Virus record (IMG/VR): IMGVR_UViG_3300022927_001391 | Location: 32,001 to 96,000 of that record | Reading direction: 5' to 3' (one strand) | DNA: 64,000 bases | Origin: a virus | Part shown: positions 32,618 to 58,002 of the stretch, in pieces | Layout: every line of letters begins with the position of its first letter | How positions within the stretch are numbered: position 1 is the stretch's first letter | Notes under the pieces: model-generated | Databases searched by the model: none | Told to the model about the DNA's origin: nothing | What the model saw: only the letters and a program-made list of their open reading frames with translations | Made by a program: the position numbers and the translations under genes

Positions 32618-33584
32618 ACTATACGAGGAACTATCTCCAAGTTTAGAACGCATGAACGACCTGGTTTTAAAATCAGGTCGTGTCATGTTGGGCGAATTTA
32701 CTGAAAAATTTGAAAACAGAATAGCAACTGTTGCTGGTGTTGAACATGCCGCAGTAGTAGGCAGTGGCAGTGATGCCTTGTATTATGCTCTAATAGCAGA
32801 AAAGGTAGATGGACCAGTAGCAATGCCTGCGCAAACATTTATTGCTACTAGCAATAGCATCGCAAGAGCAGGATGTCAGCCTGTGTGTATTGACATTAAA
32901 CCTAATGGATTGCTTGATTGGAATTTAGTTCCGCAAGAGATTGAAACAGCGGTATGGGTAGGATTGTTTGGAAACACTGAACATATTCCTGATGACTGTT
33001 TTGTAATAGAAGATGGTGCTCAACATTTTGGAGCGCCCTTACAAGCAGACACTGCTGCTTACAGTTTTGATCCCACAAAAGCATTACCCAACTTTGGCAA
33101 TGGTGGTGCTGTAGTAAGCTGGGATAAAAAGGTTATTGATAGAGTAAAAGAATTACGTAGACATCATACAGTAGACGGGCATGTTGGTGGCAATAGTATT
33201 ATGAGCGAGCGTGATTGTGCTGAGATGCTAGTTAAATTAGATCATTTCCCGTTCTGGCAAGAGCGTAGACAGGAGATTGCTAGAGATTATCATCAGCAGT
33301 TAGGCAGATACGTAAAGTGTGTAACTGATGCAGATGGACAAGTTAGTAAGTTTGTTATTGAAACATCACGTAGAGCTGACTTACAAGCACATCTAACACA
33401 TCGTAAAATAGAAACAAAACGTGCCTATAGTGAGCCTATTGCTACACTAGACAGAGCAGTGGCAAACTGTCATAAGTTTTTACAGTTGCCTTGCGATCCA
33501 TATATGACTGATGAAGAACTGTTAGCTGTTGTAGTGGCTATCAAAGAATTCTTTGAGGAAAGCCCACTCGAAGGTTTGCTGTAG
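32592..33584 (+). CDS. DegT/DnrJ/EryC1 PLP sugar aminotransferase
   Basis: GSGSDAL, TFIATSN, IEDGAQ, SFDPTKAL...GNGGAV, LQLP. Confidence 0.88.
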   Translation: MIRLHNLNRLYEELSPSLERMNDLVLKSGRVMLGEFTEKFENRIATVAGVEHAAVVGSGSDALYYALIAEKVDGPVAMPAQTFIATSNSIARAGCQPVCIDIKPNGLLDWNLVPQEIETAVWVGLFGNTEHIPDDCFVIEDGAQHFGAPLQADTAAYSFDPTKALPNFGNGGAVVSWDKKVIDRVKELRRHHTVDGHVGGNSIMSERDCAEMLVKLDHFPFWQERRQEIARDYHQQLGRYVKCVTDADGQVSKFVIETSRRADLQAHLTHRKIETKRAYSEPIATLDRAVANCHKFLQLPCDPYMTDEELLAVVVAIKEFFEESPLEGLL

Positions 33585-34763
33585 ATCATTTCCATCTTGA
33601 ACATACTTGACTGCATCTTCAGCACCTCGCACACTCCACTCACCGTTCTCACCATTACCAACTGTACTCCATTGCTCTAGTCTATAACGACTCTCAATGT
33701 CCGACTGTTGAGTAAGTTTAACACACTCACGAAACGCTGTACGCCAAGTTTCATATGGTGTGGTGTTAAAGTCAGCAGTGCTTCCTACGACAGGTACTAC
33801 ACCATGTCTAGCACTTAGCGTAAAATCCAATCCCCATTCTGTAGCATCTAACACCATCTGTTTGTGGTATGCAATAATACCCATGTGCCCATATTCTAGT
33901 CCGTTAACAGGATTACGACTATGAAATATCCAGTGTTTGGGCCCTTGTAGCCAGTCCGGTTGCCACTTAAAATTAAAGTCGGGCTCGACGATACACTTAG
34001 CAAACACGTTAAAGAACCAGGGTGTTTCGCTTATCTCAGCACAGGCTTTGTATGCTTGTGCTCTGCCTGTGACGCCGTCTATGCGCTTGGCTCTAGGGCA
34101 CTGTGCCTTTAACAGAAACCAGTTTTTATCGGCGTTTTTTTCACCATTACTAAGATATACAACATCTAGTGGCTTTTCTTCTATATTATAGTCCGTATGA
34201 CGCAATATGTATGGGTAGTCATAGAATTGGTCCTTAAAATGCTGTTTACAGTCCCTAGGCACTAGTAGTACACTGCCGCTCTGTGTAAAGGCGTGTAGAT
34301 CACGTTTTTTCCATAGACTGGGATCATAGTTAATGTCTGCGGGAGTTTGCTTGTGCCATGCATATAGGCTTGTTTGTTCATTCAAACTATCAACTGTAGG
34401 CCACTCATAACGCTGTATATAGGGCTCTGTATGCCAGTTGATATGCTTGTACCACTCTAGTAGTTTAAGGCCCTCTTGTTGACGCTTAAAAGCAGCTACA
34501 GGCACTAGGAAAGTATCCCCAAACTGCTGGTTACCGCTAGCCCAACAGTGTATCTGATCTGCTTCCCAGGGTGCAGGTTGCCATGTAAAATCAAATGTTG
34601 CATAATTGCAACAGTCTGCTACAATCCACACATACTCTGTACGAGCACGGTTAACACACCTACGTATTGTATCTAGGTGTGTACCGTTCCAACGAGTGTA
34701 TTGTGTGTGGGCTGGTAGGTCAACAGTATTACCTGTAATCTGCATGCAAAAGATATCAAACAT
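33522..34763 (-). CDS. Glycosyltransferase-like protein (two GT-A-like repeats)
   Basis: DVVYLSNGE, GVTGRAQAYKA, NPVNGLEYG, TWRTAFRECVKL; paralog of 51355. Confidence 0.55.
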   Translation of the reverse strand: MFDIFCMQITGNTVDLPAHTQYTRWNGTHLDTIRRCVNRARTEYVWIVADCCNYATFDFTWQPAPWEADQIHCWASGNQQFGDTFLVPVAAFKRQQEGLKLLEWYKHINWHTEPYIQRYEWPTVDSLNEQTSLYAWHKQTPADINYDPSLWKKRDLHAFTQSGSVLLVPRDCKQHFKDQFYDYPYILRHTDYNIEEKPLDVVYLSNGEKNADKNWFLLKAQCPRAKRIDGVTGRAQAYKACAEISETPWFFNVFAKCIVEPDFNFKWQPDWLQGPKHWIFHSRNPVNGLEYGHMGIIAYHKQMVLDATEWGLDFTLSARHGVVPVVGSTADFNTTPYETWRTAFRECVKLTQQSDIESRYRLEQWSTVGNGENGEWSVRGAEDAVKYVQDGNDLQQTFEWAFLKEFFDSHYNS

Positions 34764-34764
34764 T

Positions 34765-35415
34765 CTATAAAAACTTATTCATAATGAAATCAGCTATAGC
34801 CCTATGTCCTATTCTGTTAGGATGCATTTCACATGGCCTTATAAAATTTTGAACATCACTATTATTATCTTGTAGCCAACATGAAAAATCTCCACAATGT
34901 GGATATTCTGCAAAGTAATTTTGTGTGTCAAAAACTTCTTTGACTAAACAAGAACGTTTACTAATTAACCATGCGTTATCTGGAATCAGATCGTACAAGA
35001 AACTTTCTGCTAACTGCCCTGCAAATAAATTTACAAAGTAGCACTGTATACCCAAATCCTGGCACCATTTATATAAAATATAAAGAGTTTGGCTTGCAAC
35101 TATGTCATCATTGTAGTCGTTGCCAGTCATTTGTAGTATGCGAAGTTCACTAATTTCTTGGGCAGTGCCTTCTGAATAATCTATGTAGTTATTGTAATCT
35201 TTGTAAAACATCTGTCTACTTGGATCTGTCAAACAAAAAATTGCTATACTAAAATCTTTTCGTACCTCATTAAAACGTCTAAGTAATCCAGGAATACTTG
35301 TTCCGTTAACACCATAGTTGTTTGATCCTAACAAACAAGGAAAAGACCACTTACTATCTAACTCAGCTCCATATACCCAACTATCTCCAAAAAAAACTAC
35401 ACGATTAAAATCCAA
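34765..35415 (-). CDS. SGNH/GDSL-like protein
   Basis: FGDSWV, NYGVNGTS, HPNRIGH. Confidence 0.7.
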   Translation of the reverse strand: MDFNRVVFFGDSWVYGAELDSKWSFPCLLGSNNYGVNGTSIPGLLRRFNEVRKDFSIAIFCLTDPSRQMFYKDYNNYIDYSEGTAQEISELRILQMTGNDYNDDIVASQTLYILYKWCQDLGIQCYFVNLFAGQLAESFLYDLIPDNAWLISKRSCLVKEVFDTQNYFAEYPHCGDFSCWLQDNNSDVQNFIRPCEMHPNRIGHRAIADFIMNKFL

Positions 35416-36370
35416 GATACTGCTCCCTATTATTAATTAAAAAATTAGTTTCCTGTTCAATCCAATTGAGTGTGTTTAGACTGCGTTGGACATTCTTTCG
35501 ATACACATTTCTATTATGATTAAATCTAGATTCGAGTTGAACGATATCATATTCTGTTAACGGTATTTTACTTAACCTCAATACTTCTTGCTGGAATCTC
35601 CACATACGGACATCATGATTAGACTCATTGTCAAAACTTGTATCAACAATGTTATCAAAAACATCAAATCCTAAATTTTTAAGATACTGGTAAGTGCCCC
35701 TGGGTCCATAGATAAGAGGTATGTAGCCCCATAAAAAAGGTTTAATACTTTTTTCTGTTAATCCTATATAATTTTCTGTACAGTAGGTTTCTGCACATAC
35801 GTCAAACAAAAAGTTATGCACAGGATAGAAGTTTCCTACATTGGGACCTATATCCCTATGTACTTTGTCCTCCAAAAAGTTTTTATACGGTTGTTCTATT
35901 TCATCTTCTATATAGCCGCGCTGGCTATTATTATTATAACTTGCATATGATAAATCTAATAACTGGTTGTCTTTAAAAAAATAAAATAGTTCTTTTCTTG
36001 GCTTAGTAGGTCGGTTGTTAAGGAAACAAAAAGTTTTCTCAAGGGAGACTTTCCTAAGTTTAGGCAACTCATCAAAAGTATGATCAAAATTTACAGCATT
36101 CTGAAATTTTAAAAATAATAATTCGGGTCTATAAACATAGTTAAAGTTTGAAAAATGATTGATAAACAGAGAGGGATAATAACAAAAACTGTACAGTCTG
36201 TAATATTTTGTGTAAAGGTTGTTTATTTTTTTGTCAGTAACCTGTTTTACCCATTCAACAATATCTTTATCAAAATTGTCGTCCCAATGGATTAATGTTA
36301 CTATACTCGACCGTTCGTTTTTCCAGTAAATATCATGGTAAATTTCAAAATTTGATAATTTAGGAATCAC
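35405..36370 (-). CDS. TEK-motif GT10-like glycosyltransferase (paralog 1)
   Basis: LNNR...R, AET...LTEKSIKP...G...LKNLGFDVF. Confidence 0.55.
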   Translation of the reverse strand: MIPKLSNFEIYHDIYWKNERSSIVTLIHWDDNFDKDIVEWVKQVTDKKINNLYTKYYRLYSFCYYPSLFINHFSNFNYVYRPELLFLKFQNAVNFDHTFDELPKLRKVSLEKTFCFLNNRPTKPRKELFYFFKDNQLLDLSYASYNNNSQRGYIEDEIEQPYKNFLEDKVHRDIGPNVGNFYPVHNFLFDVCAETYCTENYIGLTEKSIKPFLWGYIPLIYGPRGTYQYLKNLGFDVFDNIVDTSFDNESNHDVRMWRFQQEVLRLSKIPLTEYDIVQLESRFNHNRNVYRKNVQRSLNTLNWIEQETNFLINNREQYLGF

Positions 36371-36830
36371 TTAATTGCTCCACTGGTATGTTACATTCCT
36401 GCAGAAACTTTAGTCCAGCATCCAGTCTATATGGATGCACATAATACACTTCACTAATGCCGCTTTGATATAAAAGTTTAGCACATTCCATACAAGGTTG
36501 ATGTGTTATAAAAGCACTGGCACCTTCGCCGCTCTCACTACAGCGAGCAAGTTTCGCGATAGCATTAGACTCTGCATGAAGCACTTCTGGTTTAGTAACT
36601 AACTCCTTTGTTACCTCAATCTTAGATACTTTAGAAAAGACCTCATCTTCACATTCATTAGTCCAGCCGCTGGGCATCCCATTGTAGCCAATGCTAATAA
36701 CACGATTGTCTTTAACAATCACACAACCAACCTTTAATCTGACAGCAGTACTACATTCAGCATATGCAAACGCTGCTTTCATGTGTGCTACTTTGTGCTT
36801 TTCTTTCACAGTCCTAAATCCATTCTCCAT
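36360..36830 (-). CDS. dCMP deaminase
   Basis: VGCVIV, GYNG, HAESNAI, PCMEC. Confidence 0.92.
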   Translation of the reverse strand: MENGFRTVKEKHKVAHMKAAFAYAECSTAVRLKVGCVIVKDNRVISIGYNGMPSGWTNECEDEVFSKVSKIEVTKELVTKPEVLHAESNAIAKLARCSESGEGASAFITHQPCMECAKLLYQSGISEVYYVHPYRLDAGLKFLQECNIPVEQLSDS

Positions 36831-37138
36831 GGATACATCGTATAGCCAAGAGGACGTAAGACGAACTCTTCAAATAGTATAATGACAACAATACCAAATA
36901 CCCATTGCACCCAACGTGGCCATGTTGCTTGCCAGCGTGTAAATGGACGTAATATCCATGCCAATATATTGGTTACCTTGCCCCAGAACCAATCACCTAC
37001 ACTAAAGGGAGGAACTTTCCACAGTACTACAGGAACTATTAACCACCATACCCACTGTGGATAATCATCATTAGGATCATCTATTACAATCATTAGAACT
37101 AGTAGTGCTAGTAGGTATGCACCGATCCATTTTTTCAT
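36806..37138 (-). CDS. Small Trp-rich membrane protein
   Basis: Three hydrophobic segments. Confidence 0.55.
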   Translation of the reverse strand: MKKWIGAYLLALLVLMIVIDDPNDDYPQWVWWLIVPVVLWKVPPFSVGDWFWGKVTNILAWILRPFTRWQATWPRWVQWVFGIVVIILFEEFVLRPLGYTMYPWRMDLGL

Positions 37139-37143
37139 ATGTG

Positions 37144-38670
37144 CTAGGAACATACTCTTACTCCATATTTCTTTTCAAAACGATTTGCGTCTGTGCGATC
37201 ATTTACCATTGGCTCTCCACGAATATTAAGACTAGTGTTTAGTAGCATAGGACAGTCCGTTAACACATACCATTTCTCTAATAAATCTCTAGCACCCGTC
37301 TTATCATCCTTGCCCACGGTTTGCACACGGCTCGTACCGTCATGATGTACAATGGCAGGAAAACGTTCAGGGTGCTTGCACTTATAGGTATGTTGCATAT
37401 ATGGACTTTTATCCCCGTCCATTTTAAAATAATCTTGTGCATGTTCCTCGAGTATCATAGGCGCAAAAGGTCTAAACTTTTGTCTACGTTTGATTTCGTT
37501 TACGCGGTCCTTGATATCTGCACCACGTGGATCAGCAAGTAGACTACGATTACCTAGGGCACGTGGACCAAACTCTGCACGACCACTTGCAACTCCTACA
37601 ATACCTTCACGCTGTAGCTCACCAATAATCTCTTCACTTGGATATTCTCCAGGAATGTTTGTGCCTAAATACGGCCCTTGCCAGTTTAACTGTTTACCAT
37701 ATGCTAGCGCGGCTGCGCCTAGACTTGAACCACAGTCTCCTGGATTAGGCATAATCCACATATCATTCCATATATCTCTGATGTGACTGTTTGCCACACA
37801 ATTAAGAGCAACTCCACCCATGAACACACAATTTTGTAAGTGTAAACCCCAACGTGTGCCTGCAAGTTGTCGCATAAAAGTTCCTAAAAAACGTTCTGTG
37901 GTTAACTGAGTTGCACGAGCAAGAGTCTCTTTGCCGTATTCAGCACCAAACTCGTATTCTATGCCTGTATGAAAGTTTCGTTTAAATTTTTGTTTGTGAT
38001 CCTGATCAATAGCCATTTCCCATACGTCACGATATGCATCTTTTTTACCGTATGCAGCCATACCCATTAGAATGTATTCTTCTTCCATAGGCTTCAAGCC
38101 TACACGATGTGTCATAGCACTATAAAATAAACCTAGACTATGAGGATAAAGCTGACGATATAATCTTTGATATTGTGCATGACCATCGTCGTCATACCAA
38201 GCTCGCCATGCTGTAATAGTATCCCATTCTCCTATGGCATCGATGACGACAACCATTGCTTCTTCAAATGGGCTAGTTTGAAATCCTGCTGCTGCATGAC
38301 TCAAGTGATGGCTGTATGTACGAATTCTTCTAGTAGGTCGACTGTCCATGCTAACAGATGTTGGCATAACATCATTGAGGTAAGGACTTAGATGTGCCCT
38401 AGGACTTTTATCGTTCAAAGCCTTTCGCCATTCACCGCTATAAATTTGACGTGTCTTTTTTAGCCAAGGACGTTCATACCATGCAATTACATCAGGCATC
38501 CCGTATCCTAGTGCCTCTTGCATAATGCCATCATTAAGTTCAGCATCATTTTTAATTTTGCTATAGCGTTCGCTATGACCAGCAAATAATATATTGCCGT
38601 TACCGTCTACAACACTCACACCAGCATCATGAAAGCCGGCGCTCACACCCATGTATGTTTTAATTTTCAT
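37144..38670 (-). CDS. Carbamoyltransferase (CmcH/NodU/TobZ family)
   Basis: HDAG, ERYS..KND, HHLSHAA, DAIGE, GGVALNC, EFGPRALGNRS, RPFAP, HHDGTSRVQ, LNTSLN. Confidence 0.93.
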   Translation of the reverse strand: MKIKTYMGVSAGFHDAGVSVVDGNGNILFAGHSERYSKIKNDAELNDGIMQEALGYGMPDVIAWYERPWLKKTRQIYSGEWRKALNDKSPRAHLSPYLNDVMPTSVSMDSRPTRRIRTYSHHLSHAAAGFQTSPFEEAMVVVIDAIGEWDTITAWRAWYDDDGHAQYQRLYRQLYPHSLGLFYSAMTHRVGLKPMEEEYILMGMAAYGKKDAYRDVWEMAIDQDHKQKFKRNFHTGIEYEFGAEYGKETLARATQLTTERFLGTFMRQLAGTRWGLHLQNCVFMGGVALNCVANSHIRDIWNDMWIMPNPGDCGSSLGAAALAYGKQLNWQGPYLGTNIPGEYPSEEIIGELQREGIVGVASGRAEFGPRALGNRSLLADPRGADIKDRVNEIKRRQKFRPFAPMILEEHAQDYFKMDGDKSPYMQHTYKCKHPERFPAIVHHDGTSRVQTVGKDDKTGARDLLEKWYVLTDCPMLLNTSLNIRGEPMVNDRTDANRFEKKYGVRVCS

Positions 38671-38768
38671 TTGTAAATAAAAGGATCTCTTTTACGTAGT
38701 TCTTTTAGTCGCTTGCGATACTGTATCTCAAGTTTAATTCTATTAATAAGGTTGCGAATCCATTTCAT
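38667..38768 (-). CDS. 33-aa basic peptide coupled to the carbamoyltransferase (not in ORF track)
   Basis: MKWIRNLINRIKLEIQYRKRLKELRKRDPFIYK; TAATG and ATGA overlaps at the two ends. Confidence 0.7.
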   Translation of the reverse strand: MKWIRNLINRIKLEIQYRKRLKELRKRDPFIYK

Positions 38769-47723: not shown

Positions 47724-48561
47724 ATACGTACTCTGCCCATTGTTTGTGATAGTCTGCTAACGGATGTTGATTACGGAATATATTAGTATCTGAGTAATGC
47801 TGTTCTCTGTATTCAACACTGTCTATTAGCTGTAACATCCATTGCTTAAAGTCTACTAGTTGTTTACCGCTAACAAACTCTTCGATAGTCAGCAGTCTTT
47901 CAACTGCTGTCATATCTGTATAGACACATTTGTCGTCAGTAATTCCTATTGTTTTGTACCAAGCGTCAAAACTTGAAGTGAAACCTAAACTATCTATCAT
48001 ATTAGTAGTAAGGTATAGATTAACGTGAGGAAACTGTAAACTGTTGCGTATTTGTTTTATAGCCGTTGTATTTAACAATTCCAAAAGACTGTAATAATCA
48101 TTAGGTGTGTTTATATTTTGTTTGAACCACTCTACGTAGTCAAAGTCATGATCAATATCTGTGTTAAACATTCTACCAGCACCTGTAAACACACAGACTA
48201 CTAGGATCTTTTCATAGTTTAACAATGGCACAATATTGGCAAACTCAGTTATCCTGTTAGCCATCCATTGATTTCCTTGAGCACACAATGCGAGATTTAA
48301 CCAGTCCGAGCCCATCATACCTGAGAGTTGGTTTCCCCAAACGGATTTTAATCTATAGTCATCGTCAGAGTTGTTCTCGCTTATATCGCTACCCCAAGTC
48401 CAACTATCTCCGACAGTAACTAGTAGAATGTTGCTTGATCTGCTTACAAAGTCAAAAGTGTTTGTAGGAGTTAGATACCAGCTATTAGTGCTATCAGCGA
48501 TAGTAAAATACCTAGGAAGTACTTCTTTAGCTAAAACTATTGGCAATGTATTTGCACTCAT
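47701..48561 (-). CDS. SGNH/GDSL-like protein
   Basis: VGDSWTWG, QGN, HPLADYH. Confidence 0.65.
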   Translation of the reverse strand: MSANTLPIVLAKEVLPRYFTIADSTNSWYLTPTNTFDFVSRSSNILLVTVGDSWTWGSDISENNSDDDYRLKSVWGNQLSGMMGSDWLNLALCAQGNQWMANRITEFANIVPLLNYEKILVVCVFTGAGRMFNTDIDHDFDYVEWFKQNINTPNDYYSLLELLNTTAIKQIRNSLQFPHVNLYLTTNMIDSLGFTSSFDAWYKTIGITDDKCVYTDMTAVERLLTIEEFVSGKQLVDFKQWMLQLIDSVEYREQHYSDTNIFRNQHPLADYHKQWAEYVYENINYR

Positions 48562-49897
48562 TCCAAAACTCTGACATTTCAGGAAATGTTTCTAAAAAGT
48601 TCGTACCGCGTCTGCGATCATGTTCACTAAAAAATCTATAAAAGTCTGCTCTGCGTGTATCAATGTCACTTACATTATCCACACCTTGCATCCATGCTAG
48701 ATCACGTCTCATCTTTAGTACTTCGTAGTCCTTAAATCCGTGCATCTCATCTAAATTGGATTCCATAAATTTTATACAGTCTTTAAGATATAACTGATAT
48801 GCCGGAGTTAATATCTGCATACTTTGCCATTCAGGAGTATACAGTAATGGAGTATCAAACCAAATACGCTGATAACTTTTGGTATAAGTCTTGCGAAGGT
48901 ATAAAATATACTCTAGCAGTTTCTGCAGACTAATAATACTTAAATTATTCATTGTAATTATCAAGGTAAGACTGGAACGCTCAGGAACCTCTTTTATAAA
49001 CTGTTCAATGCGTGACTTACAAAGTTCAAAGTCAAGTCCATGCCTAATGTATTCTGCTTGTGCACCCCAAGTATCCAAGCTGACAAACTGCATGAAGTGT
49101 TCTATTTGTTCGCCAGTGCATAGTCGTTTAACATAGTCCATGTAGCGAGTAAAGATACGTTCGTCCACACTAAAGTTACTTGTTACGTTTAAGTGAAGAT
49201 CAGGCTTTGGGTTCTCAAGTACATAATCAAACACACGATAGGTGTTTGGATCCATGGTAGGTTCGCCGCCGGTCATACGAAAGTGTTTAAGGTCTTTGTA
49301 TAGGTCTGGCCACCAACGCCAGAATGCTTCACGATATGGATTAGTGTCCCTATTAGGAATAGGCTTACGTTCGCCTTTAAAATGTGCAGGATCATTATGA
49401 GGAGTGCTTGTAGGATAAGCACCAAACTCATCTGCTTCACGTTCCCATGTACTGCTAAACTGTGGACTACAATAACTACACTTTAGATTACAACTGTTAT
49501 TAAAGTTAACTTCTACGTAACTGGGATTAACATCTGCTTGTGGGTTTGCTACAATGTCTTCGAATGCCTCCATAGCCCAAGGCTCACCGCTGCGATAATG
49601 CCTATCACTGAGGTCACCGTTTTTCTCAATATTCCAACAGTAGTTACATTCGGCACACTTTACACCTGCCATCATTTCGGCACGTCGTTCTTTCTTGTGT
49701 GCTGTATTGTGTAGTGCGCTTGGATTACTTGCTAGTGGCTCTACGGGTATGCGGTGCAATGGGGGATGGTAGCAACTGTTAGTATGCCCTGTTGTTAGAT
49801 GTAAACTAACTTGTTTCCATTTTGCCAAGCAGAAACTGCCGCTAACACCTGCCATACGTGCTTTTGCTATGTTTGCGTCTGTCAGATAGTCACTCAT
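48527..49897 (-). CDS. Radical SAM enzyme with N-terminal twitch domain (5, AKW subtype)
   Basis: CLAKW...SCYHP...CNYCW; CNLKCSYC; GGEP; SLD; EYIR. Confidence 0.88.
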   Translation of the reverse strand: MSDYLTDANIAKARMAGVSGSFCLAKWKQVSLHLTTGHTNSCYHPPLHRIPVEPLASNPSALHNTAHKKERRAEMMAGVKCAECNYCWNIEKNGDLSDRHYRSGEPWAMEAFEDIVANPQADVNPSYVEVNFNNSCNLKCSYCSPQFSSTWEREADEFGAYPTSTPHNDPAHFKGERKPIPNRDTNPYREAFWRWWPDLYKDLKHFRMTGGEPTMDPNTYRVFDYVLENPKPDLHLNVTSNFSVDERIFTRYMDYVKRLCTGEQIEHFMQFVSLDTWGAQAEYIRHGLDFELCKSRIEQFIKEVPERSSLTLIITMNNLSIISLQKLLEYILYLRKTYTKSYQRIWFDTPLLYTPEWQSMQILTPAYQLYLKDCIKFMESNLDEMHGFKDYEVLKMRRDLAWMQGVDNVSDIDTRRADFYRFFSEHDRRRGTNFLETFPEMSEFWNECKYIANSFS

Positions 49898-50825
49898 TGG
49901 CTAACTCTATCAAACGTTGTTGATTATTTTTAAGCCTGTCAGTTATAGTGTTGTAGTCTACAGGGTTTCGCATAAACTTTTGTAAACTATTAAAAACTTT
50001 ATCCACTCTTATATAGCTGCTTTCGGTATCATAGGTTTTATCTAGTATATCATCGAACGTATCAAAACCTAATTCTCTGAGATTACGCTCATAGTTAGGA
50101 CTTCCTATTACTAGAAAAAGTCTACCGTAATATATTGGCCTAAATATTTTTTCTGTCATAAAAAAAGTTCCAGAAGCTATATTTGTTTCGCACACAATTT
50201 CAATAGCTATATTATTATACGTTTCATGCCAAATTGGATCCAAGTCAAATCTACAAATCTGTGTAAATGTATCTTGTGTACCGAAATGAAAATTTTTATC
50301 TATAATATCACTATAGGGCAGGATTGGTTTTATTTCCTGCCATTTTTCGTTGTTTTCACAAATAAAGGGAGTGAAATCACAGTTGGATTCTAAAGTATTA
50401 TTAATGTTTACATGGCAAGTAGCGATACAGTTTTGCATCTTTCTTGATTTCCAAAATGCATATAAACGTTCATTAGTACCTCTACCTGTAAACAAACCAA
50501 AATTATTTTTATATGGATTGTTGAAGTCAATAGGTTTTAAATTTTTTGGCAGTAGACGGTTTTTAACTGTATTTACAACAAATGTTTCACTTTTGCCTAG
50601 CCTATCTGTAGATTCAAAAGTTATATTACTATACGGAATATGAAGTTTATTGGCAATGTCTTTTACTATATTTTCTATACCATTGGCAACAATATCCCAG
50701 CCATCAGTACCTAAACTTAAAACAATAGGTTTACCTGTTTTATGTATTGCTGCTATTTCTAGTGCTAGAAGATGAGTGTCTCTAATGTGACTAGCACCGC
50801 AGTATTTTGTTAAATCAATCTTCAC
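49890..50825 (-). CDS. TEK-motif GT10-like glycosyltransferase (paralog 4)
   Basis: VCET...MTEKIFRP...G...LRELGFDTF; GTG start assumed. Confidence 0.55.
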   Translation of the reverse strand: MKIDLTKYCGASHIRDTHLLALEIAAIHKTGKPIVLSLGTDGWDIVANGIENIVKDIANKLHIPYSNITFESTDRLGKSETFVVNTVKNRLLPKNLKPIDFNNPYKNNFGLFTGRGTNERLYAFWKSRKMQNCIATCHVNINNTLESNCDFTPFICENNEKWQEIKPILPYSDIIDKNFHFGTQDTFTQICRFDLDPIWHETYNNIAIEIVCETNIASGTFFMTEKIFRPIYYGRLFLVIGSPNYERNLRELGFDTFDDILDKTYDTESSYIRVDKVFNSLQKFMRNPVDYNTITDRLKNNQQRLIELANE

Positions 50826-51354
50826 GCAAAAACCCACTAATTTGCATGGTGTATTTGTCTTGCATGCCTGCATTAGCACCAAGATGTATTACACTGCTAT
50901 CCCATAGTAATGCATCACCTTGTTTCCAATGTGTAAAGTTTTTAAATTCCTTACCGTCTTCGCTATACTGTATAAAATGTCCCAGACAGTAATCTTCCAT
51001 ATGTATATTGGCACGTACTTTAAGTTCTGTTCTTTCAGGAAATTTTTTATTGATCTGATAAAATGTATCTCTATGTAGTGGTATAACACAACCTGGGGGT
51101 TGTTTAATGGCGCTGACAGTAACAACTTCGATACCTATCTGATTGCCAATTTCATCGAAATCAATATCATCCTTAGTATACCATAACTGATGTATGCGAG
51201 TATTAAGGTATTCGTAAGCAGTAGGTGCACCATATTTTTTATGAAGATCTGTTAGTTCATGTACCTGATGACTAATACAACTACCTTCATGTAATGTAAA
51301 GTCTGCTTGTAAAAACTTGTCGTAATCTATATTTAATTTAAGTTTCTTAAACAT
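50815..51354 (-). CDS. 2OG-Fe(II)/cupin-fold oxygenase-like protein
   Basis: PLHRD...H.GAN...KYTMQISG; paralog of 8838. Confidence 0.6.
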   Translation of the reverse strand: MFKKLKLNIDYDKFLQADFTLHEGSCISHQVHELTDLHKKYGAPTAYEYLNTRIHQLWYTKDDIDFDEIGNQIGIEVVTVSAIKQPPGCVIPLHRDTFYQINKKFPERTELKVRANIHMEDYCLGHFIQYSEDGKEFKNFTHWKQGDALLWDSSVIHLGANAGMQDKYTMQISGFLRED

Positions 51355-52281
51355 TTACCATCCTTCAACTTTCCTAATAACTTCTAGTTCTGTAGTCATA
51401 GGATCATATGCGTGATAAGTCTGACTGTAGTAGTGTTTAAAGAACCGGCTCTCTTCTGCTGTATAATCCACAATAGGAAGTTCTAGTTTACGTCTAAGTT
51501 GCACACCATATTCTGTAAAGTTAGTATCCAACCAAGATTGTTCTTCTTCCCAAATCTGATCAAGGGCTGCAAAGTCTCTTACTTCATGCCAGTCCCAGTC
51601 TGTCAGCATGAGCTTGTATGTGCCATAACGTGCACCATACATTGCTTCATAACCATACTCAGTGTCCTGTCCTACACTTTGCCAGATGCAGAGCTTGTCA
51701 AAGTTTTTTGCGTGTACCTGCTGTTTGAATTCTTCCAGTGTAGGCTTGCGTCCTTTCATCAAACACATCTTTACACCTTCTCTGAATCCTGCACGCCACG
51801 CATGTTTAGCATCGCCATTAGGATAGGTAGTACTATATACATTGTTCATTGGAATGTACTTGCTGTCGTAGCAAAACTCTACTACGGTTTCGTCACTACC
51901 ATCTGTTGCTTCGTGTGTTTGCATATTATTTACAAACTCACGTGTCCAACAACTAAGTCCACCATTGCCGTACATAAGTCCGTTAACAGCGTTACGTGCT
52001 TTCCAACGAAACACACAATCCTCATGCTCGGGCTTAATATCTAACTGTAGGTCAAAGAATGATTCGTCAGGTATATTGTCTCCGTCTATGAGAACAAAGC
52101 GTTCTGTTTCACTTGCTGCGGCGGCTGCTTTGTGTGCTGCGTCACTGCCTTCAACGCCATCCACACGTTTAGCCCAAGGCACAATGTTTTGTATCCTTAC
52201 CCAAAACTCTTCTTTCTGTGGTTCGTCGTAGCTTAGATAGATGCAGTCTAAGTCAGCTATGTCTACTAGTTGTCCAGCCAC
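51355..52281 (-). CDS. Glycosyltransferase-like protein (GT-A, DxD)
   Basis: LSYDEP, GVEGSDAAHKA, IDGD, NAVNGLMYGNGG, AWRAGFREGVKM. Confidence 0.6.
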   Translation of the reverse strand: MAGQLVDIADLDCIYLSYDEPQKEEFWVRIQNIVPWAKRVDGVEGSDAAHKAAAAASETERFVLIDGDNIPDESFFDLQLDIKPEHEDCVFRWKARNAVNGLMYGNGGLSCWTREFVNNMQTHEATDGSDETVVEFCYDSKYIPMNNVYSTTYPNGDAKHAWRAGFREGVKMCLMKGRKPTLEEFKQQVHAKNFDKLCIWQSVGQDTEYGYEAMYGARYGTYKLMLTDWDWHEVRDFAALDQIWEEEQSWLDTNFTEYGVQLRRKLELPIVDYTAEESRFFKHYYSQTYHAYDPMTTELEVIRKVEGW

Positions 52282-52496
52282 TCATGCAACCTTGCTACAT
52301 CTTCGTGACTGTCTGTTATAACACGAATACCACGTGCATATACTGTGCGGTCTAGTTCGTAAGTAGAACTAAATGACTGTTCACAAAACTGTTTTAGCTC
52401 TGTAAATAGTTCTTGATTGTCCTTAAACTGACTTTCTAGAATTTGCTCGCCCTTTTCTACACTATGGGGCAGAGGAACAAATACTTCATTTTGCAT
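52266..52496 (-). CDS. Hypothetical protein
   Basis: 76-aa ORF, AGGAG RBS. Confidence 0.5.
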   Translation of the reverse strand: MQNEVFVPLPHSVEKGEQILESQFKDNQELFTELKQFCEQSFSSTYELDRTVYARGIRVITDSHEDVARLHEWLDN

Positions 52497-52803
52497 TTTG
52501 AATCTCCTTTATACAAAAATATGGATTATTTTTTAAAGTAATTGCTGGTGTTACTTGCCAATATACATGGATAGCTGTATCTATATCTACGATTTTGCCA
52601 TCTTGAACACGCTGTCTCAGAGGATATACTAGTGTATCTTCTGATATAACAATATAATCTTCAGTCCAGTGTTCTGCTTTATTTACGTGACACCAGTTAA
52701 TAATTTCACCAGTTTCTTTATTATAACGCAAACGAACTTCCAGTTCAATTTTAGTGCGCTTTTGTAGCTTTTTAGCTATTAATTGTTCTAACTCTGTACT
52801 CAT
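52486..52803 (-). CDS. Hypothetical protein
   Basis: RLRYNKETGEI motif. Confidence 0.55.
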   Translation of the reverse strand: MSTELEQLIAKKLQKRTKIELEVRLRYNKETGEIINWCHVNKAEHWTEDYIVISEDTLVYPLRQRVQDGKIVDIDTAIHVYWQVTPAITLKNNPYFCIKEIQNAK

Positions 52804-53617
52804 ATCTATCTATCAATTCTGGAGTGCAAAATGTTTTATCGAAATAATGGAACGGATACTGTTGCGCATACCCGCCTACAATTAGATCAAAGTCGTCTGT
52901 TAGTGTCCATGGTACAGCATCCTGCCAGCGCATGCTATTCTTCCAGTTATTAATAGCTGGCTTCATGTGTGTAAATGTAGGATAACTTAATTTGTTTGAA
53001 CAAGGTATTCCAAGATTTGACTGGGCCAATCCATATAGAACATCAGTGTCAGGTTTGTCATAGATGCTATACTCAAGAACACTGTCACGCAACTCAGCCC
53101 AATGGTGTATCGCCTGCTCAATAGCTCTACAGAAGCCCACACTAGTCCTACTATACCTAAAATATGAAAACCCATTATAAGCATCATCAAGGGAATTGGC
53201 ATCAAAAAACTTCCTGTAGTAACGTGTTTGGGCAATATTACCCTGATAGTCTCTTACACTATTAGTATAGCACACATCTTGTAATCTACAACCATTCCAC
53301 CAGTGGTCCAAACTGCGAGGAATCAGCATGTCGCTTTCTACTTTAAATGTTTCCTTAAAAGGTGTAACATTCATTACCCACGCTTCGTTATAGAAAGGCT
53401 CTGTGTGTGGTACTGTAATAATGTGATCAAAGGTTTTACGTTGCTGTTCTGTAATGGTCGCCTCAGATTCAGCATCAACTACTACAGCAAATCTATTATG
53501 CTTACAGGTTGCTTTTACACTAAGAGCAAGCAAATAGGCGAGGTCAACATAGTTTGTTGTCTCACTATTCTGTGCAAATGTTAGCCAACCCTGTGGTTCT
53601 ACTTTTTCTCGATACAT
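52772..53617 (-). CDS. GT8-like glycosyltransferase
   Basis: LALSVK, TPFKETFKVESDM (degenerate DxD), THMK, FHY. Confidence 0.6.
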   Translation of the reverse strand: MYREKVEPQGWLTFAQNSETTNYVDLAYLLALSVKATCKHNRFAVVVDAESEATITEQQRKTFDHIITVPHTEPFYNEAWVMNVTPFKETFKVESDMLIPRSLDHWWNGCRLQDVCYTNSVRDYQGNIAQTRYYRKFFDANSLDDAYNGFSYFRYSRTSVGFCRAIEQAIHHWAELRDSVLEYSIYDKPDTDVLYGLAQSNLGIPCSNKLSYPTFTHMKPAINNWKNSMRWQDAVPWTLTDDFDLIVGGYAQQYPFHYFDKTFCTPELIDRYEYRVRTINS

Positions 53618-53769
53618 AAACCGACTTCTGTTTGTTCTACTATTAATATATCGCCTTCTTTCCAGCCTGTCATTTCTAATAGCTCTGCAGGTAGATTCAT
53701 TATAACATTGTTGGGATCATCCTGAATGTCTTCAAAAATATCTTTGACTTTAAATGTTAGCGTAGTCAT
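53599..53769 (-). CDS. AbrB/MazE-like swapped-hairpin protein (56 aa, not in ORF track)
   Basis: MTTLTFKVKDIFEDIQDDPNNVIMNLPAELLEMTGWKEGDILIVEQ...; GGAG RBS. Confidence 0.65.
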   Translation of the reverse strand: MTTLTFKVKDIFEDIQDDPNNVIMNLPAELLEMTGWKEGDILIVEQTEVGLCIEKK

Positions 53770-54532
53770 ACAATGCTCCGTATATTTCTGGATCCTGTAA
53801 GCAGGCTTTGTTCATACAGTGTAGGTTTACACCTTTAAGTTTAACAGCATTATACTTGTCACCGTCTTGATAGCGTATGCGTAGTTCATCTCCGTTAGCA
53901 GAATAGATAGTGTCCATTGTACTCAAACTACCCAGTGGATGATTAAAGTAGGTACCACTAGCATAGCCATTCATAAGCTGATGTGCAATTGTTAGACTAA
54001 AGTCATTGCGATATTTGCCTGCTACAAATCCCCAAAACTTTGCATAGTAACGCCAGTTGGCTTGTACGTTCTTCATCATTTCAAATATATTATGGGCTAG
54101 GTCGCACTTGCGAAAGTAAACGACCGTAGCCCATAACATTGGATGGCCGGCCCTGGTCATCCTTTGATCGTTACGGAAACTATTTGTGGAGGTAACATCC
54201 CATACACGATCATAACATAAAAACTCATTTGTACTACCAAAGTACTGCTTAAGATTATCATTAAAAGTAAGGTAGTCTACGTCTATTAAGAGTGTTTCAT
54301 CATAAGGGCTTAAATCATATGCCAGTGTTCTATCACTGTTGTACCAGGGCACTGTGACAACTTCGCCTTCATGCCAGCGGAATGCTCTAGTATTGCCAGG
54401 CCGCGCTTCACCTACATATATATGTGTTTCAATGTCTAAATGTTTTTCTACAAGTTTGGCAGCTAGTTTAGCAAACCCTATGTAGTCTATTGTTTCATGT
54501 GGTGTAGCAAGTAGTAGTGCACCCTTACTCAT
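53750..54532 (-). CDS. GT8-like glycosyltransferase
   Basis: SPYDETLLIDVDY (DxD), WATVVYF, RNDF, HCMNK. Confidence 0.65.
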   Translation of the reverse strand: MSKGALLLATPHETIDYIGFAKLAAKLVEKHLDIETHIYVGEARPGNTRAFRWHEGEVVTVPWYNSDRTLAYDLSPYDETLLIDVDYLTFNDNLKQYFGSTNEFLCYDRVWDVTSTNSFRNDQRMTRAGHPMLWATVVYFRKCDLAHNIFEMMKNVQANWRYYAKFWGFVAGKYRNDFSLTIAHQLMNGYASGTYFNHPLGSLSTMDTIYSANGDELRIRYQDGDKYNAVKLKGVNLHCMNKACLQDPEIYGALYDYANI

Positions 54533-55202
54533 CTAAGATACTATCCAATAAAAAATCAGCATAAGCAGCATGCCCTTTTTCATCAGGATGACCTGCCCAT
54601 CCATATTGATCATGATCCCAGGGTGTTAGATTATTATCTTGCATTATTTGGTGCAAACTATTTTCAAACATGTTTATAAATCTAGGTCTGGACTGTATTT
54701 GTTCGTATATTTTATTAGCAAATACAAAATCATTGTCAATGTCAAAGTTGAAACCTAAATTATGTATTATAAAATTTTTATTATTGTGGCTAAGATAATC
54801 ATGTAGTTGAAGTAGATTAAACAGAACATTTACTTCCATATACTGCCAGTCAAATAATTGTTGTGTTTCTCTAGTAGCATCAGTAATTTGAAAACTTTTA
54901 ATACTGTCCTCTTCTCTCCATCTTTTATATTCGTTGTCTCTAATACTATAGCTAGGAACATCATCTGTGAAGTGTTCTAAACGTTGTACAACTCCTATGC
55001 CAATAAGCATAAGACTGTCTTGTTCACTTAGACTGTACCTAATAGCTGATCTTATAATTTGGGCAGGGCTTTTCCGGGTAAATCCATAGTGCTCTAAATC
55101 TAAACCTAGTCTTTGTGCTAATATATGACCAGTTGTTGTTTTTTGTCCGGCAGGCAATGCCATACTATGACTATCCCCATCGTAATATAATTTTTTAGTC
55201 AT
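54525..55202 (-). CDS. SGNH/GDSL-like protein
   Basis: DGDSHS, GHPDEKGH. Confidence 0.65.
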   Translation of the reverse strand: MTKKLYYDGDSHSMALPAGQKTTTGHILAQRLGLDLEHYGFTRKSPAQIIRSAIRYSLSEQDSLMLIGIGVVQRLEHFTDDVPSYSIRDNEYKRWREEDSIKSFQITDATRETQQLFDWQYMEVNVLFNLLQLHDYLSHNNKNFIIHNLGFNFDIDNDFVFANKIYEQIQSRPRFINMFENSLHQIMQDNNLTPWDHDQYGWAGHPDEKGHAAYADFLLDSILDE

Positions 55203-55525
55203 AGTTGTTCTACACGTCTAACCTTTTTTAATTCAGCATGTTGATTGTGCCAATCATTCATTACTTCGTACCAGCGTTGTCTACAGTGTACTAACATGTC
55301 ACAAGCATCTGTAATCTTTACTGGATTATCGTAGTCGTCTACGAGATATAGCAGTTCATCTGCTGGCCATGTTGCTAGTAGGGCTATTAGTTCTACTGTA
55401 ACTTTAAACTGTCCACCATCATATGTGATAGTGAGACGCTGTTCCTGTTGTTCTTTAAGAGCCAAGCGTTGACGATTGTGGTCAAGACGCTGGCGTGCGA
55501 ATTGTTCAAATGTTTCTAAGGTCAT
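55199..55525 (-). CDS. Hypothetical protein, probably leaderless
   Basis: ATG at 55525 sits 7 nt downstream of the -10 box, with no SD. Confidence 0.6.
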   Translation of the reverse strand: MTLETFEQFARQRLDHNRQRLALKEQQEQRLTITYDGGQFKVTVELIALLATWPADELLYLVDDYDNPVKITDACDMLVHCRQRWYEVMNDWHNQHAELKKVRRVEQL

Positions 55526-55532
55526 GTAAGAT

Positions 55533-55561
55533 AGTATAACAGGGCTCGAAAGCCCTGTCAA
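55533..55561 (-). promoter_or_regulatory. Sigma70 promoter TTGACA-N17-TATACT whose spacer is a UUCG-capped hairpin
   Basis: Minus strand reads TTGACAGGGCT-TTCG-AGCCCTGTTATACT. Confidence 0.7.
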
Positions 55562-56509: not shown

Positions 56510-56524
56510 GTTTTGTTCTTCCTA

Positions 56525-57964: not shown

Positions 57965-57994
57965 ATCGTTTAGTTCTCCACAAACTTTATAAAT

Positions 57995-58002
57995 TATTTA
58001 TC
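57995..58002 (-). promoter_or_regulatory. Late promoter-like GATAAATA
   Basis: Intergenic, about 30 nt upstream of the structural gene at 57964. Confidence 0.5.

Follow-up and report, generated by a model that had tools for sequence, protein, structure and literature searches.

A large, uncultured salt-marsh phage of the jumbo type carries directly after its fibre-like genes a tightly packed gene cluster which, as judged from gene content across relatives, is composed of a conserved core and of exchangeable cassettes, a division newly recognized here. The encoded enzyme families make a carbohydrate pathway the probable function of this cluster. Our tentative reading of the whole, which we rate slightly short of an even chance, is a cytoplasmic pathway of glycan assembly and tailoring, most likely serving the fibres of the virion.

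Gene run, promoter and conserved position

The window, the entire analysed stretch of 64,000 nucleotides, covers positions 32,001-96,000 of the 105 kb IMG/VR record IMGVR_UViG_3300022927_001391 with an estimated completeness of 29% (CheckV); genomes of relatives reach up to 320-337 kb. On the minus strand (33522-55561), 24 open reading frames are packed into 22 kb with overlaps at 18 of 23 junctions and a total of 434 non-coding nt. At the head of the cluster, in the gap between g25 and g24, a sigma70-like promoter (55533-55561, minus strand) consists of TTGACA, a 17 nt spacer containing the hairpin GGGCTTTCGAGCCC and TATACT, with the ATG of g24 located 7 nt further downstream. With 11 of 12 consensus matches, this site scores highest within 44-64 kb; overall, promoter-like sites are no more numerous than in shuffled sequence. 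The -35/-10 pair is kept at the equivalent position in 42 of 73 distinct relatives as compared with 0.2% of control windows, and a terminator-like hairpin occurs within the g25/g24 gap equally in 42 of 73. The packed run with its own sigma70 promoter, as given in a preliminary description of this DNA, has thus been substantiated. As hairpin and promoter separate g25 from g24 in most relatives, the cluster is, on this sequence evidence, probably transcribed separately from the late fibre genes, and with co-transcription one argument for a virion target is lost. Contigs from four salt-marsh RNA libraries map onto the cluster, with a DNA origin of these contigs being possible.

The genes immediately upstream, g25-g29 (55568-63954, minus strand), code for fibre-like virion structural proteins. 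Serine and threonine make up 24-26% of g25, g26 and g28, the C-terminal domain of g26 matches a virion structural protein of phage PA5oct, and the region shows a weak Peptidase_G2 match. A T4-type late-promoter-like motif, TATAAATA (61597-61604, minus strand), is located upstream of g28 as one of just 2 copies in the window, where 6.4 are expected.

Linkage of the cluster was assessed in 80 viral loci from mutually related phages, the best-matching 80 of at least 596 contigs with a g19 relative. Among those, the GT8-like pair is present in 80, g24 in 79, the fibre genes in 78 and the radical SAM genes in 77 loci, with each missing g24, fibre or radical SAM gene attributable to a truncated locus. 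In all untruncated loci, and also in the cultured Ralstonia phage RsoM2USA, the core is placed after fibre-like genes. In RsoM2USA, ORF354-348 correspond to the head of the module and are adjoined by ORF356, which is described as detected in virions by mass spectrometry (PMC8504454). The linkage across relatives that had been proposed as a check is therefore conserved; since the loci are best matches from related phages, the gene order may in part reflect shared descent rather than selection.

Core genes and accessory cassettes

The core comprises g24, two GT8-like genes, g19, five radical SAM orthogroups, g07, the carbamoyltransferase gene g06 and g01, while the cassettes consist of TEK-motif, SGNH, SDR and cupin genes. 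In locus L008, core proteins are 92-99% identical, yet not any TEK, SGNH, SDR or cupin gene is present. About half of the genes listed at the outset (TEK, SGNH, SDR and cupin) are consequently regarded as swappable accessories outside the conserved pathway, and the preliminary observation as a whole is confirmed in part. In one relative, the variable slots are occupied by a formyltransferase, a B12 radical SAM and a 2OG oxygenase.

The two GT8-like assignments were borne out: the profile of g21 (52772-53617, minus strand, as all genes of the run) matches glycogenin-1 (3v90; E 8.8e-6), and for g22 (53750-54532), with invariant D84 and D86, homology to g21 was established by hhalign with the profile of the latter (99.3%, E 9e-21). 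Two further proteins had been called GT-A-like. The g19 product (51355-52281) is probably a GT-A-type glycosyltransferase, as suggested by a DGDN motif invariant across 13 sequences of its very large family, for which Pfam has no entry, and by 10 long forms, 5 of which are fused to a GT-B domain and 2 of which have sub-threshold GT2 matches. The final gene of the run, g01 (33522-34763), retained in L004, L005, L006, L008 and L009, contains in residues 199-410 a g19-family domain devoid of the DGD motif (hmmsearch E 2.4e-31). For both proteins, Pfam and PDB searches gave no match, and their earlier assignment is supported indirectly, by the DGDN motif and the GT-B fusions of the g19 family. The conserved g07 protein (38768-39838) of unassigned fold is rich in His, Glu and Asp positions that are invariant in the alignment, and has no relative in PDB, Pfam or Atlas. 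The first gene of the unit, g24 (55199-55561, likely start ATG 55525), encodes a small conserved protein with no Pfam family beyond cut-off, possibly a fibre chaperone.

The five radical SAM enzymes g08 (39819-41117), g10 (42086-43318), g11 (43221-44534), g12 (44531-45877) and g16 (48527-49897) belong over their full length to NCBIfam NF033640 (N_Twi_rSAM, 'twitch domain-containing radical SAM protein') with 292, 325, 383, 302 and 318 bits, respectively, against a cut-off of 170, a model defined at subfamily level without an assigned reaction. CxxxCxxC, GGEP and four N-terminal cysteines are invariant among these paralogs. Their number and the twitch domain were predicted correctly; the suggested kinship with BtrN was rejected because the twitch domain of NF033640 is N-terminal, and the five PDB matches at E<=1 do not include BtrN. 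Phrase searches of the literature yielded no publication dealing with N-terminal twitch or SPASM enzymes. The RsoM2USA ortholog of g12 is 53% identical, and g11 has 7223 metagenome homologs out of 8000 scored. In a quick tree, each of the five orthogroups, including g16 with its bacterial members, clusters with Bdellovibrionota proteins (SH-aLRT 95-100), which by phylogeny makes them an old set. The same five subfamilies are arrayed in Bdellovibrionota with glycosyltransferases as the most frequent neighbours: 150 neighbouring ORFs from 32 loci include 14 Glycos_transf_1, 3 carbamoyltransferase, 2 DegT and 2 GT2 proteins. GT8-like genes and g07 occur in none of 70 such bacterial loci, and g19 relatives in just 5 of 70.

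Equally well founded are the carbamoyltransferase and the convergent DegT gene. The g06 product (37144-38670) is of the TobZ/NovN/GdmN O-carbamoyltransferase type by both Pfam domains (C-domain 3.9e-52, N-domain 2.4e-33), with NovN, GdmN and TobZ (E 1.5e-31) as solved relatives. The DegT/DnrJ/EryC1 sugar aminotransferase gene (32541-33584, plus strand; Pfam 7.7e-42) adjoins g01 also in L004, L005, L006 and L008. Several small or unassigned proteins were absent from the initial gene list, namely the dCMP deaminase g04, the membrane protein g05 and the unknowns g07, g20 and g24. The nucleotide-metabolism neighbour g04 (36360-36830; Pfam 3.3e-20) matches both PF00383 and PF14437; its position shifts between relatives, and it does not belong to the constant part of the module. 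The g05 protein (36806-37153, 115 aa) is the sole product of the run with transmembrane-like segments and is found elsewhere just in L008 and L090 among the fetched loci. The small unknown g20 (52486-52803) is variably present (3 of 80 loci).

Among the cassettes, the epimerase g14 (46899-47723; Pfam Epimerase 2.3e-30) was assigned as expected to the SDR epimerases/reductases, with GDP-L-fucose synthase as top NCBIfam match, below the cut-off of that model. Four TEK-motif, fucosyltransferase-like proteins, g03 (35405-36370), g09 (41110-42093), g13 (45865-46899) and g17 (49890-50882), are indeed paralogs (mutual blastp E 1e-9 to 9e-3); their proposed GT10 likeness is sub-threshold, as the two PDB matches of the family, both GT10 fucosyltransferases, have E values of 0.069 and 1.7, and a Pfam search gave no match. 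Similarly, the three SGNH-like proteins g02 (34765-35415), g15 (47701-48561) and g23 (54525-55202) display the GDS and HPxxxGH motifs of that assignment, with weak Pfam matches for g02 (Lipase_GDSL_2, E 0.063) and g15 (Lipase_GDSL, E 0.13) and none for g23. The designation of g18 (50815-51354; 4 of 80 loci) as a 2OG/cupin enzyme is reduced to a sub-threshold likeness (Pfam PhyH and Asp_Arg_Hydrox, E about 0.05).

Proposed pathway and alternative explanations

A carbohydrate pathway, as initially suggested, is favoured by independent lines of evidence, namely the GT8-like pair, the fusions of g19 relatives to GT-B domains, the type of g06, the DegT gene next to g01, the formyltransferase of one relative and the glycosyltransferase neighbours in bacteria; the earlier interpretation as a whole is partly supported. 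We infer chemistry, step order and acceptor as follows. A sugar chain would be assembled and tailored in the cytoplasm of the infected cell by g22, g21, g19, g01, the five radical SAM enzymes, g07, g06 and the bordering DegT aminotransferase. The radical SAM enzymes would abstract hydrogen from sugar carbons leading to oxidative ketone formation, epimerisation or deoxygenation, DegT would aminate the keto-sugar, the glycosyltransferases would build the chain, and g06, as a presumed ATP- and carbamoyl-phosphate-dependent O-carbamoyltransferase, would carbamoylate a free hydroxyl. The slots between core genes are occupied here by fucosyltransferase-like TEK proteins, the GDP-fucose-synthase-like SDR, SGNH-like acyl-esterases and the cupin as swappable cassettes, which would make the decoration differ among strains. 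Among possible acceptors, the phage's own fibre-like proteins encoded immediately upstream are considered most likely, although a virion protein as acceptor is proposed with clear reservation.

Alternatively, though unlikely, the cluster could remodel the host envelope by extending or decorating an LPS core or capsule precursor on the cytoplasmic face and thereby block superinfection or change the receptor. GT8 is the family of the LPS-core transferases, and its enzymes need no membrane anchor to act on the LPS core; the sigma70-type promoter suggests expression preceding virion assembly, and the turnover of cassettes is similar to O-antigen diversification. The authors of the pelagimyophage study read glycosyltransferases of the tail-fibre hypervariable region, where radical SAM cassettes are also described, in this way (PMC7029224). 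However, the run lacks a flippase, a polymerase, an initiating phosphoglycosyl transferase and a Gtr-type membrane enzyme, membrane segments being confined to g05 with its restricted occurrence. Moreover, the module is retained in phages binned with very different bacterial phyla, across which a target specific to the LPS of one host could hardly be kept up, provided that these bins, which may be wrong, are right. Even less probable is a free aminoglycoside-like small molecule that manipulates, for example, the host or competing microbes. The enzyme set resembles that of aminoglycoside pathways, where a twitch radical SAM dehydrogenase is paired with a DegT-type aminotransferase (BtrN/BtrS) and TobZ serves as carbamoyltransferase, and ABC transporters make up 4 of the 150 bacterial neighbour ORFs; on the other hand, Pfam recognizes no cyclitol synthase or exporter in the phage run, the PDB matches do not include BtrN, and the fixed position after fibre genes is left with no obvious reason.

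Modification of DNA, with g06 carbamoylating 5-hydroxymethylcytosine and the transferases placing sugars on bases, is rated as very unlikely. A phage carbamoyltransferase of the same superfamily produces 5-carbamoyloxymethylcytosine, and in modified contigs the gene is accompanied by the dCMP deaminase domains PF00383 and PF14437, the pairing with ThyA being specific to such contigs as described (Yang et al. 2021, PMC8670742). Consistent with this, g04 lies 314 nt from g06, follows it closely also in L005, L008 and L009, and the sigma70-type promoter is compatible with early expression. Nevertheless, ThyA-like (PF00303) and PRA-PH genes were not found in the 105 kb record, and a ThyA-like gene is equally lacking in two near-complete relatives (92% and 100% complete), both of which have the carbamoyltransferase beside the module; this makes the established route via carbamoylation of 5hmC unlikely. 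The inconstancy of g04 as a neighbour, the location of the bacterial radical SAM homologs among polysaccharide-type genes and, as a weak point, the acidic nature of the GT-like proteins (pI 4.7-6.7) also speak against DNA. Just as improbable is a RiPP-maturase-like modification of protein or peptide, for instance of the fibre or of g24 as a small product, by the radical SAM enzymes, with glycosylation being separate or secondary. Characterised SPASM/twitch enzymes are mostly peptide maturases, NCBIfam matches to such maturases are present, if weak, and Peptidase_S74, a fibre chaperone domain, occurs in two bacterial neighbours. However, neither a precursor peptide nor an RRE domain could be recognised, thioether chemistry on fibres is ruled out as the fibre proteins possess 0-2 cysteines, glycosyltransferases dominate the bacterial neighbourhoods, and 0 of 70 bacterial loci contain a fibre homolog.

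Comparison with known systems

Glycosyltransferases after tail-fibre genes, with GT8 as the commonest, have been described in the host-recognition hypervariable cluster of pelagimyophages and cyanomyophages, the gene content of which was interpreted as host O-chain modification (Zaragoza-Solas et al. 2020, PMC7029224). As a further resemblance, those are marine T4-like phages. The phage here is a jumbo phage, and the description of their cluster does not define a conserved core, five radical SAM orthogroups, the g19 family or a link to Bdellovibrionota. The 5hmC carbamoyltransferase system shares the Pfam domain pair, the phage context and the adjoining dCMP deaminase; its defining partner as described, a ThyA-like dCMP hydroxymethylase, is absent here and, unlike in that system, g06 is surrounded by glycosyltransferase and radical SAM genes (PMC8670742). 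Aminoglycoside tailoring by BtrN, BtrS-type DegT and TobZ equally unites a radical SAM enzyme with auxiliary cluster, a DegT protein and a carbamoyltransferase, but BtrN has its twitch domain at the C-terminus and the phage run is without a cyclitol synthase. Mycobacteriophage capsids and tail tubes and chlorovirus capsids are glycosylated by soluble enzymes which the virus itself encodes, independently of any machinery for membrane export, as would also apply to virion glycosylation by the cluster here; to our knowledge, these systems involve neither radical SAM enzymes nor a carbamoyltransferase. The conserved enzyme set after the fibre genes of the phage would probably serve to make a sugar chain with heavy decoration.

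Conservation of the gene run and its fibre-like neighbours

The minus-strand run between 33522 and 55561 is as tightly packed as had been described, with 24 ORFs (g01 to g24, numbered from 33522 upwards), 18 of 23 junctions overlapping and 434 nt of non-coding DNA. With a CheckV completeness of 29%, the 105,168-bp source record, of which the window covers bases 32001-96000, represents only part of a jumbo phage genome. Salt-marsh metagenomes contain near-identical DNA, and a megablast search with 12 kb against cultured phages gave no match. Besides the enzymes of the preliminary description, the run encodes a dCMP deaminase (g04), a small membrane protein (g05) and the uncharacterised g07, g20 and g24. 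Located between the carbamoyltransferase gene g06 and the dCMP deaminase gene, g05 (36806-37153, minus strand) encodes a Trp-rich protein of 115 aa with at least two hydrophobic segments that has been found elsewhere only in the related loci L008 (98% identical) and L090. A PHROGs search of 10 uncharacterised proteins gave no match, and Pfam searches at E up to 10 found none for g01, g07, g09, g13, g19, g21, g22 and g23; for g07, a PDB profile search equally retrieved nothing relevant and Atlas only unnamed viral clusters or near-chance scores.

The genes adjoining the run upstream on the same strand, g25 to g29 (55568-63954), had been called tail-fibre genes and can be accepted as fibre-like virion genes, although no strong family match provides a name for them; a tblastn search of g29 against phages gave no match. 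The label fibre-like is used because g25, g26 and g28 are acidic with a Ser plus Thr content of 24-26%, because the C-terminal domain common to g26 and g28 matches, in g26, a PA5oct-type jumbo-phage protein annotated as virion structural protein or baseplate tail pin and, weakly (E 0.0013), the Peptidase_G2 intramolecular chaperone, and because a copy of TATAAATA is located 27 nt before g28. This element has only two copies in the 64 kb, at 266-273 (+) and 61597-61604 (-), versus 6.4 expected, both just upstream of ORFs as in T4-type late promoters.

Linkage of these genes is conserved in related phages. A pattern scan based on an alignment of the core protein g19 gave at least 599 stretches, at least 596 of them encoding a relative, and in the best 80 loci the GT8-like pair g21/g22 occurs in all 80, g24 in 79, the fibre genes in 78 and radical SAM genes, up to seven per locus, in 77, with all misses being loci cut short on the respective side (the 5' part is missing in L092 and L130, and L095, L107 and L122 stop directly behind g19). 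The genes of the TEK family, in varying slots, are found in 47 of the 80 loci, g07 in at least 23 and g06 in at least 11, as counted by phmmer with the window proteins in loci that end 10 kb downstream. The genes of these loci are all encoded on one strand with the same order, except for one inverted distal block in L166. As the loci come from related phages, shared descent accounts for part of this order; g21, g22, g24 and g25 are, at the same time, down to 25-45% identical while cassettes turn over between the core genes. Eight contigs filed under bacterial metagenome-assembled genomes (L010-L014, L016, L051 and L052) share both the fibre genes and the module and thus look like mis-binned phage DNA.

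Six IMG/VR loci retrieved via g11 delineate, by comparison, the colinear core as the fibre genes, g24, g22, g21, (g20), g19, g16, a slot, g12, g11, g10, a further slot, g08, (g07), g06, (g05, g04) and g01. The core proteins of L008 are 92-99% identical to those of the window, yet this locus lacks every TEK, SGNH, SDR and cupin gene, while in other relatives the slots are occupied by a B12-binding radical SAM enzyme, a 2OG oxygenase, a formyltransferase, further radical SAM enzymes or an amidoligase-like protein. About half of the genes initially assigned to the cluster are therefore swappable cassettes. The dCMP deaminase gene g04 had been considered as a core member and was dismissed, its position differing between relatives. 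The convergent DegT gene at the border of the run is, as proposed, a plus-strand member of the DegT/DnrJ/EryC1 family (144 bits, cut-off 19.8), and it is convergent to g01 also in L004, L005, L006 and L008.

The only cultured phage with homologs of g19 and g21 is the Ralstonia phage RsoM2USA (343.8 kb), in which ORF354-348 correspond to g24, g22, g21, one uncharacterised protein, g19, a g16-like radical SAM enzyme and a g19/g01-like protein. These genes adjoin ORF355 and ORF356, and the protein encoded by ORF356 has been detected in virions by mass spectrometry, according to the text available of that study (PMC8504454). A g12-like radical SAM gene and a carbamoyltransferase gene are located approximately 90 kb away from ORF354-348. 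RsoM2USA also possesses two ThyA-like genes (334307-335206 and 7739-8398), one of them divergent (E 6e-25).

By its sequence, the module is probably its own transcription unit, with a host-type promoter in most relatives, as a conserved promoter and a terminator-like hairpin are located in the gap between g25 and g24. The sigma70 promoter that had been placed at 55533-55561 holds up: the site (55561-55533, minus strand) is the best in the 44-64 kb region, and a -35/-10 pair occurs in 42 of 73 distinct g25-g24 gaps compared with 0.2% of control windows. A terminator-like hairpin is equally found in 42 of the 73 gaps (control windows 1.4%), and a T4-late-like [TC]TAAATA element in 11 (control windows 2.3%). 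Taken as a whole, promoter-like and terminator-like sites were no more numerous than in shuffled sequences, and of the promoter-like sites only the conserved one before g24 has been used. A GC hairpin lies within its spacer, and 7 nt separate the -10 hexamer from the first ATG of g24; in the window (55523-55561, minus strand) and in the gaps of L099, L110 and L117, the distance from the -10 hexamer to the g24 start codon is 5-7 nt and includes no Shine-Dalgarno sequence, which suggests that the first gene of the unit has a leaderless mRNA. Contigs of four salt-marsh RNA libraries cover many parts of the cluster, which is no proof of transcription, of its starts or of its level, and bins without cover carry no meaning; the greater depth and longer contigs over g25/g26 in three of four runs are at most a hint.

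Enzyme families of the module

The five radical SAM enzymes g08, g10, g11, g12 and g16 match the NCBIfam model NF033640 over their full length (292, 325, 383, 302 and 318 bits, respectively; curated cut-off 170). They are mutual paralogs at 22-32% identity and share the invariant residues C156, C160 and C163 of the CxxxCxxC motif, the G216-G217-E218-P219 stretch and the N-terminal cysteines C42, C61, C102 and C105. The assignment as twitch-domain radical SAM enzymes thus stood, but the enzymes are not of the BtrN type, as the Pfam SPASM match in g08, g10 and g11 (residues 8-105) is N-terminal to the Radical_SAM domain and none of the five PDB sequences retrieved with a threshold of E 1 was BtrN. 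Matches to RiPP maturase NCBIfam models were weak and far below cut-off. In RNA-library contigs from two studies (X14 and X20), positions 49472 and 44073 are joined via 23 unrelated letters, both ends being located near the CxxxCxxC motifs of the paralogs g16 and g11; the junction could represent a recombinant without g12-g15 or an assembly chimera.

Among the glycosyltransferase-like genes, the GT8-like pair has been confirmed. An ortholog profile of g21 matches glycogenin-1 (E 8.8e-6, profile positions 4-101), and hhalign (99.3%) shows homology between g21 and g22, the latter with an invariant D84 and D86; a Pfam GT8 match is absent for both even at E up to 10, and a PDB profile search of g22 gave nothing relevant. 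The four TEK-motif proteins g03, g09, g13 and g17 are a genuine paralog family, as found by blastp among the proteins of the run, but their GT10 character is tentative: the only two PDB matches of a 15-sequence profile are the GT10 fucosyltransferases FUT9, with E 0.069, and FucTA of plants, with E 1.7, which align on the E-x(7-9)-TEK motif. No Pfam match was obtained for this family, and tblastn of g13 against phages gave no match.

The g19 family is large, with all 8000 scored metagenome candidates matching (at least 8000 members) and 1541 representative clusters at 50% identity. For g19 itself, no Pfam, PHROG or PDB relative was found, and none of the 120 family matches listed carries a Pfam domain; in Atlas, the nearest named cluster is GT2 at 0.87, to be taken as a lead only, next to unnamed viral clusters or near-chance scores. 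An alignment of 13 members, including three from bacteria, shows an invariant DGDN motif. Of 10 longer members, five possess an N-terminal GT-B domain (Glyco_tran_28_C, EryCIII-like_C, UDPGT), two, distantly related, sub-threshold Glycos_transf_2 matches (E 0.001-0.004), two Sel1 repeats and one no domain. The GT-B fusions and the sub-threshold GT2 matches indirectly support g19 as a putative GT-A-type transferase, the fusions being, by their domain composition, a Rosetta-stone link for a family that lacks a Pfam model. In the metagenome proteins P0314, P0321, P0347 and P0385 (738-809 aa), a g19-family domain is fused to the C-terminal side of a GT-B glycosyltransferase. The distal protein g01 contains one g19-family domain at residues 199-410 (E 2.4e-31) with the DGD motif lost; a tandem duplication of the domain has been rejected, as only residues 199-410 match and the N-terminal half reaches only iE 5.6.

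The carbamoyltransferase g06 has both domains above cut-off (Carbam_trans_N 116 bits, Carbam_trans_C 177 bits) and NovN, GdmN and TobZ as solved relatives, whereas the NodU designation fails with 149 bits against a model cut-off of 1000. Enzymes of the NovN/GdmN/TobZ type act on hydroxyls of sugars and natural products. The proposed epimerase g14 is an SDR epimerase/reductase by Pfam, with GDP-L-fucose synthase as best NCBIfam match, below cut-off. The three proteins announced as SGNH enzymes (g02, g15 and g23) all display the GDS and HPxxxGH motifs, but Pfam scores are sub-threshold for g02 and g15 (14.2 and 12.8 bits versus cut-offs of 32.9 and 23.6) and g23 has no Pfam match; a PDB profile search of the trio found nothing relevant. 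Equally, the 2OG/cupin assignment of g18 is based on a motif and sub-threshold Pfam matches.

Radical SAM arrays in Bdellovibrionota

A scan of one genome per species identified 95 relatives of g12/g16, and of the 78 loci kept, 70 are without phage fibre genes, mostly from Bdellovibrionota and several on megabase contigs. According to profile searches, the 70 loci together encode 147 radical SAM ORFs belonging to this family, often in tandem. On a Bacteriovoracaceae UBA6144 contig (L017, 9974-21229), a tandem array of seven full-length ORFs of the N-terminal-twitch type, plus a fragment, spans all five phage subfamilies with housekeeping genes including Obg and RsfS as neighbours. A quick maximum-likelihood tree with 64 sequences places the five phage orthogroups each with bacterial members, at SH-aLRT values of 95-100; the five-enzyme set is thus either older than the split between phage and bacterial members or has been exchanged as a set. 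Four distant N-twitch-like radical SAM enzymes of the 255 kb Vibrio phage K566 (L002, 11971-18707; also in K567), interleaved with hypothetical proteins of 311-361 aa, are a long-branched outgroup in this tree.

Among the 150 ORFs nearest to or between the radical SAM genes of 32 loci, Glycos_transf_1 (14) and Glyco_trans_1_4 (13) are the most common Pfam families, followed by other radical SAM enzymes (7), ABC transporters (4), carbamoyltransferases (3), and DegT, GT2 and Peptidase_S74 (2 each). On the Bacteriovoracaceae chromosome OZ223251.1 (L033, 3943-20646), a TPR protein and a protein of 619 aa that bears the N-methylation motif of type IV pilins are followed by two N-twitch radical SAM enzymes, a GDSL hydrolase, a carbamoyltransferase, three more radical SAM enzymes and a B12 radical SAM enzyme. 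The 70 bacterial loci contain g19 relatives in five cases and no GT8-like genes or g07, and phmmer searches with g24-g29 gave no match in them.

Product, acceptor and comparison with known systems

A carbohydrate product is indicated by the three or four transferase-like core genes, by a carbamoyltransferase whose solved relatives use hydroxyls of sugars or natural products, by the sugar aminotransferase kept at the border and the formyltransferase in the slot of a relative, and by the glycosyltransferase-rich surroundings of the bacterial radical SAM arrays. Virion, envelope and DNA had all been named as potential acceptors. The run contains no Pfam family for a flippase, polymerase, initiating transferase or exporter, with membrane segments restricted to g05, which favours an acceptor in the cytoplasm. 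Virion fibres are favoured from gene content as the first choice, as the position of the module behind the fibre genes is constant, both in marine relatives and in a phage from soil. On the other hand, the separate promoter and terminator weaken the argument from co-expression, and GT8 enzymes can also modify lipopolysaccharide cores without membrane anchors. A free aminoglycoside-like product and RiPP-like protein modification are minor alternatives.

For DNA as the acceptor, the sections available of a study on a phage carbamoyltransferase describe the conversion of 5hmC to 5-carbamoyloxymethylcytosine, co-occurrence of the enzyme with dCMP deaminase and ThyA-like genes, and clade-specific positions corresponding to W408, G421 and R423 of TobZ (Yang et al. 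2021, PMC8670742). The dCMP deaminase gene g04, 314 nt from g06, would fit this known route, but a PF00303 ThyA-like gene is absent from the 105-kb record, which is 29% complete and equally lacks a PRA-PH gene, and no ThyA-like gene is present in two relatives of 92% and 100% completeness either, with a single carbamoyltransferase beside the module in both. The lack of a ThyA-like gene in all three makes the known 5hmC route unlikely; action on another hydroxylated base is possible. A Tet_JBP search was uninformative, as control genomes also gave no match.

Returning to the fibres, it is conceivable, though rather improbable in this complete form, that in a large clade of jumbo T4-related phages (at least 596 viral contigs) the five-enzyme set in common with predatory Bdellovibrionota acts together with the GT8 pair, the g19 family and the O-carbamoyltransferase to build a radical-tailored and carbamoylated amino-glycan on the phage's own fibres, which would be the first radical-SAM virion glycosylation. 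The swappable cassettes would then vary the coat between strains. If the product were located on fibres, host recognition and the known diversity of marine tail-fibre regions would gain a new layer; a modified envelope, free metabolite or base would be new chemistry as well. As the cultured RsoM2USA carries the head of the module, the module can be tested experimentally. Equally, the g19 family, among the larger unannotated phage families, now has a testable assignment as putative glycosyltransferase.

A literature search retrieved nothing on the conserved core, the g19 family, the Bdellovibrionota link or any chemistry, nor on the five orthogroups or N-terminal-twitch radical SAM enzymes. The portions available of two reports describe, as gene content, glycosyltransferases and radical SAM cassettes in the tail-fibre regions of T4-like phages from marine sources (PMC7029224) and mention 12 radical SAM genes in an environmental T4-like genome (PMC5332604). 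The N-terminal-twitch enzymes carry no assigned reaction; hundreds of phage contigs, and arrays in bacteria as well, keep five orthogroups of them together, which suggests a radical pathway of several steps acting on a single substrate. In BtrN, the twitch domain is C-terminal, whereas in all five enzymes of the window it is N-terminal.
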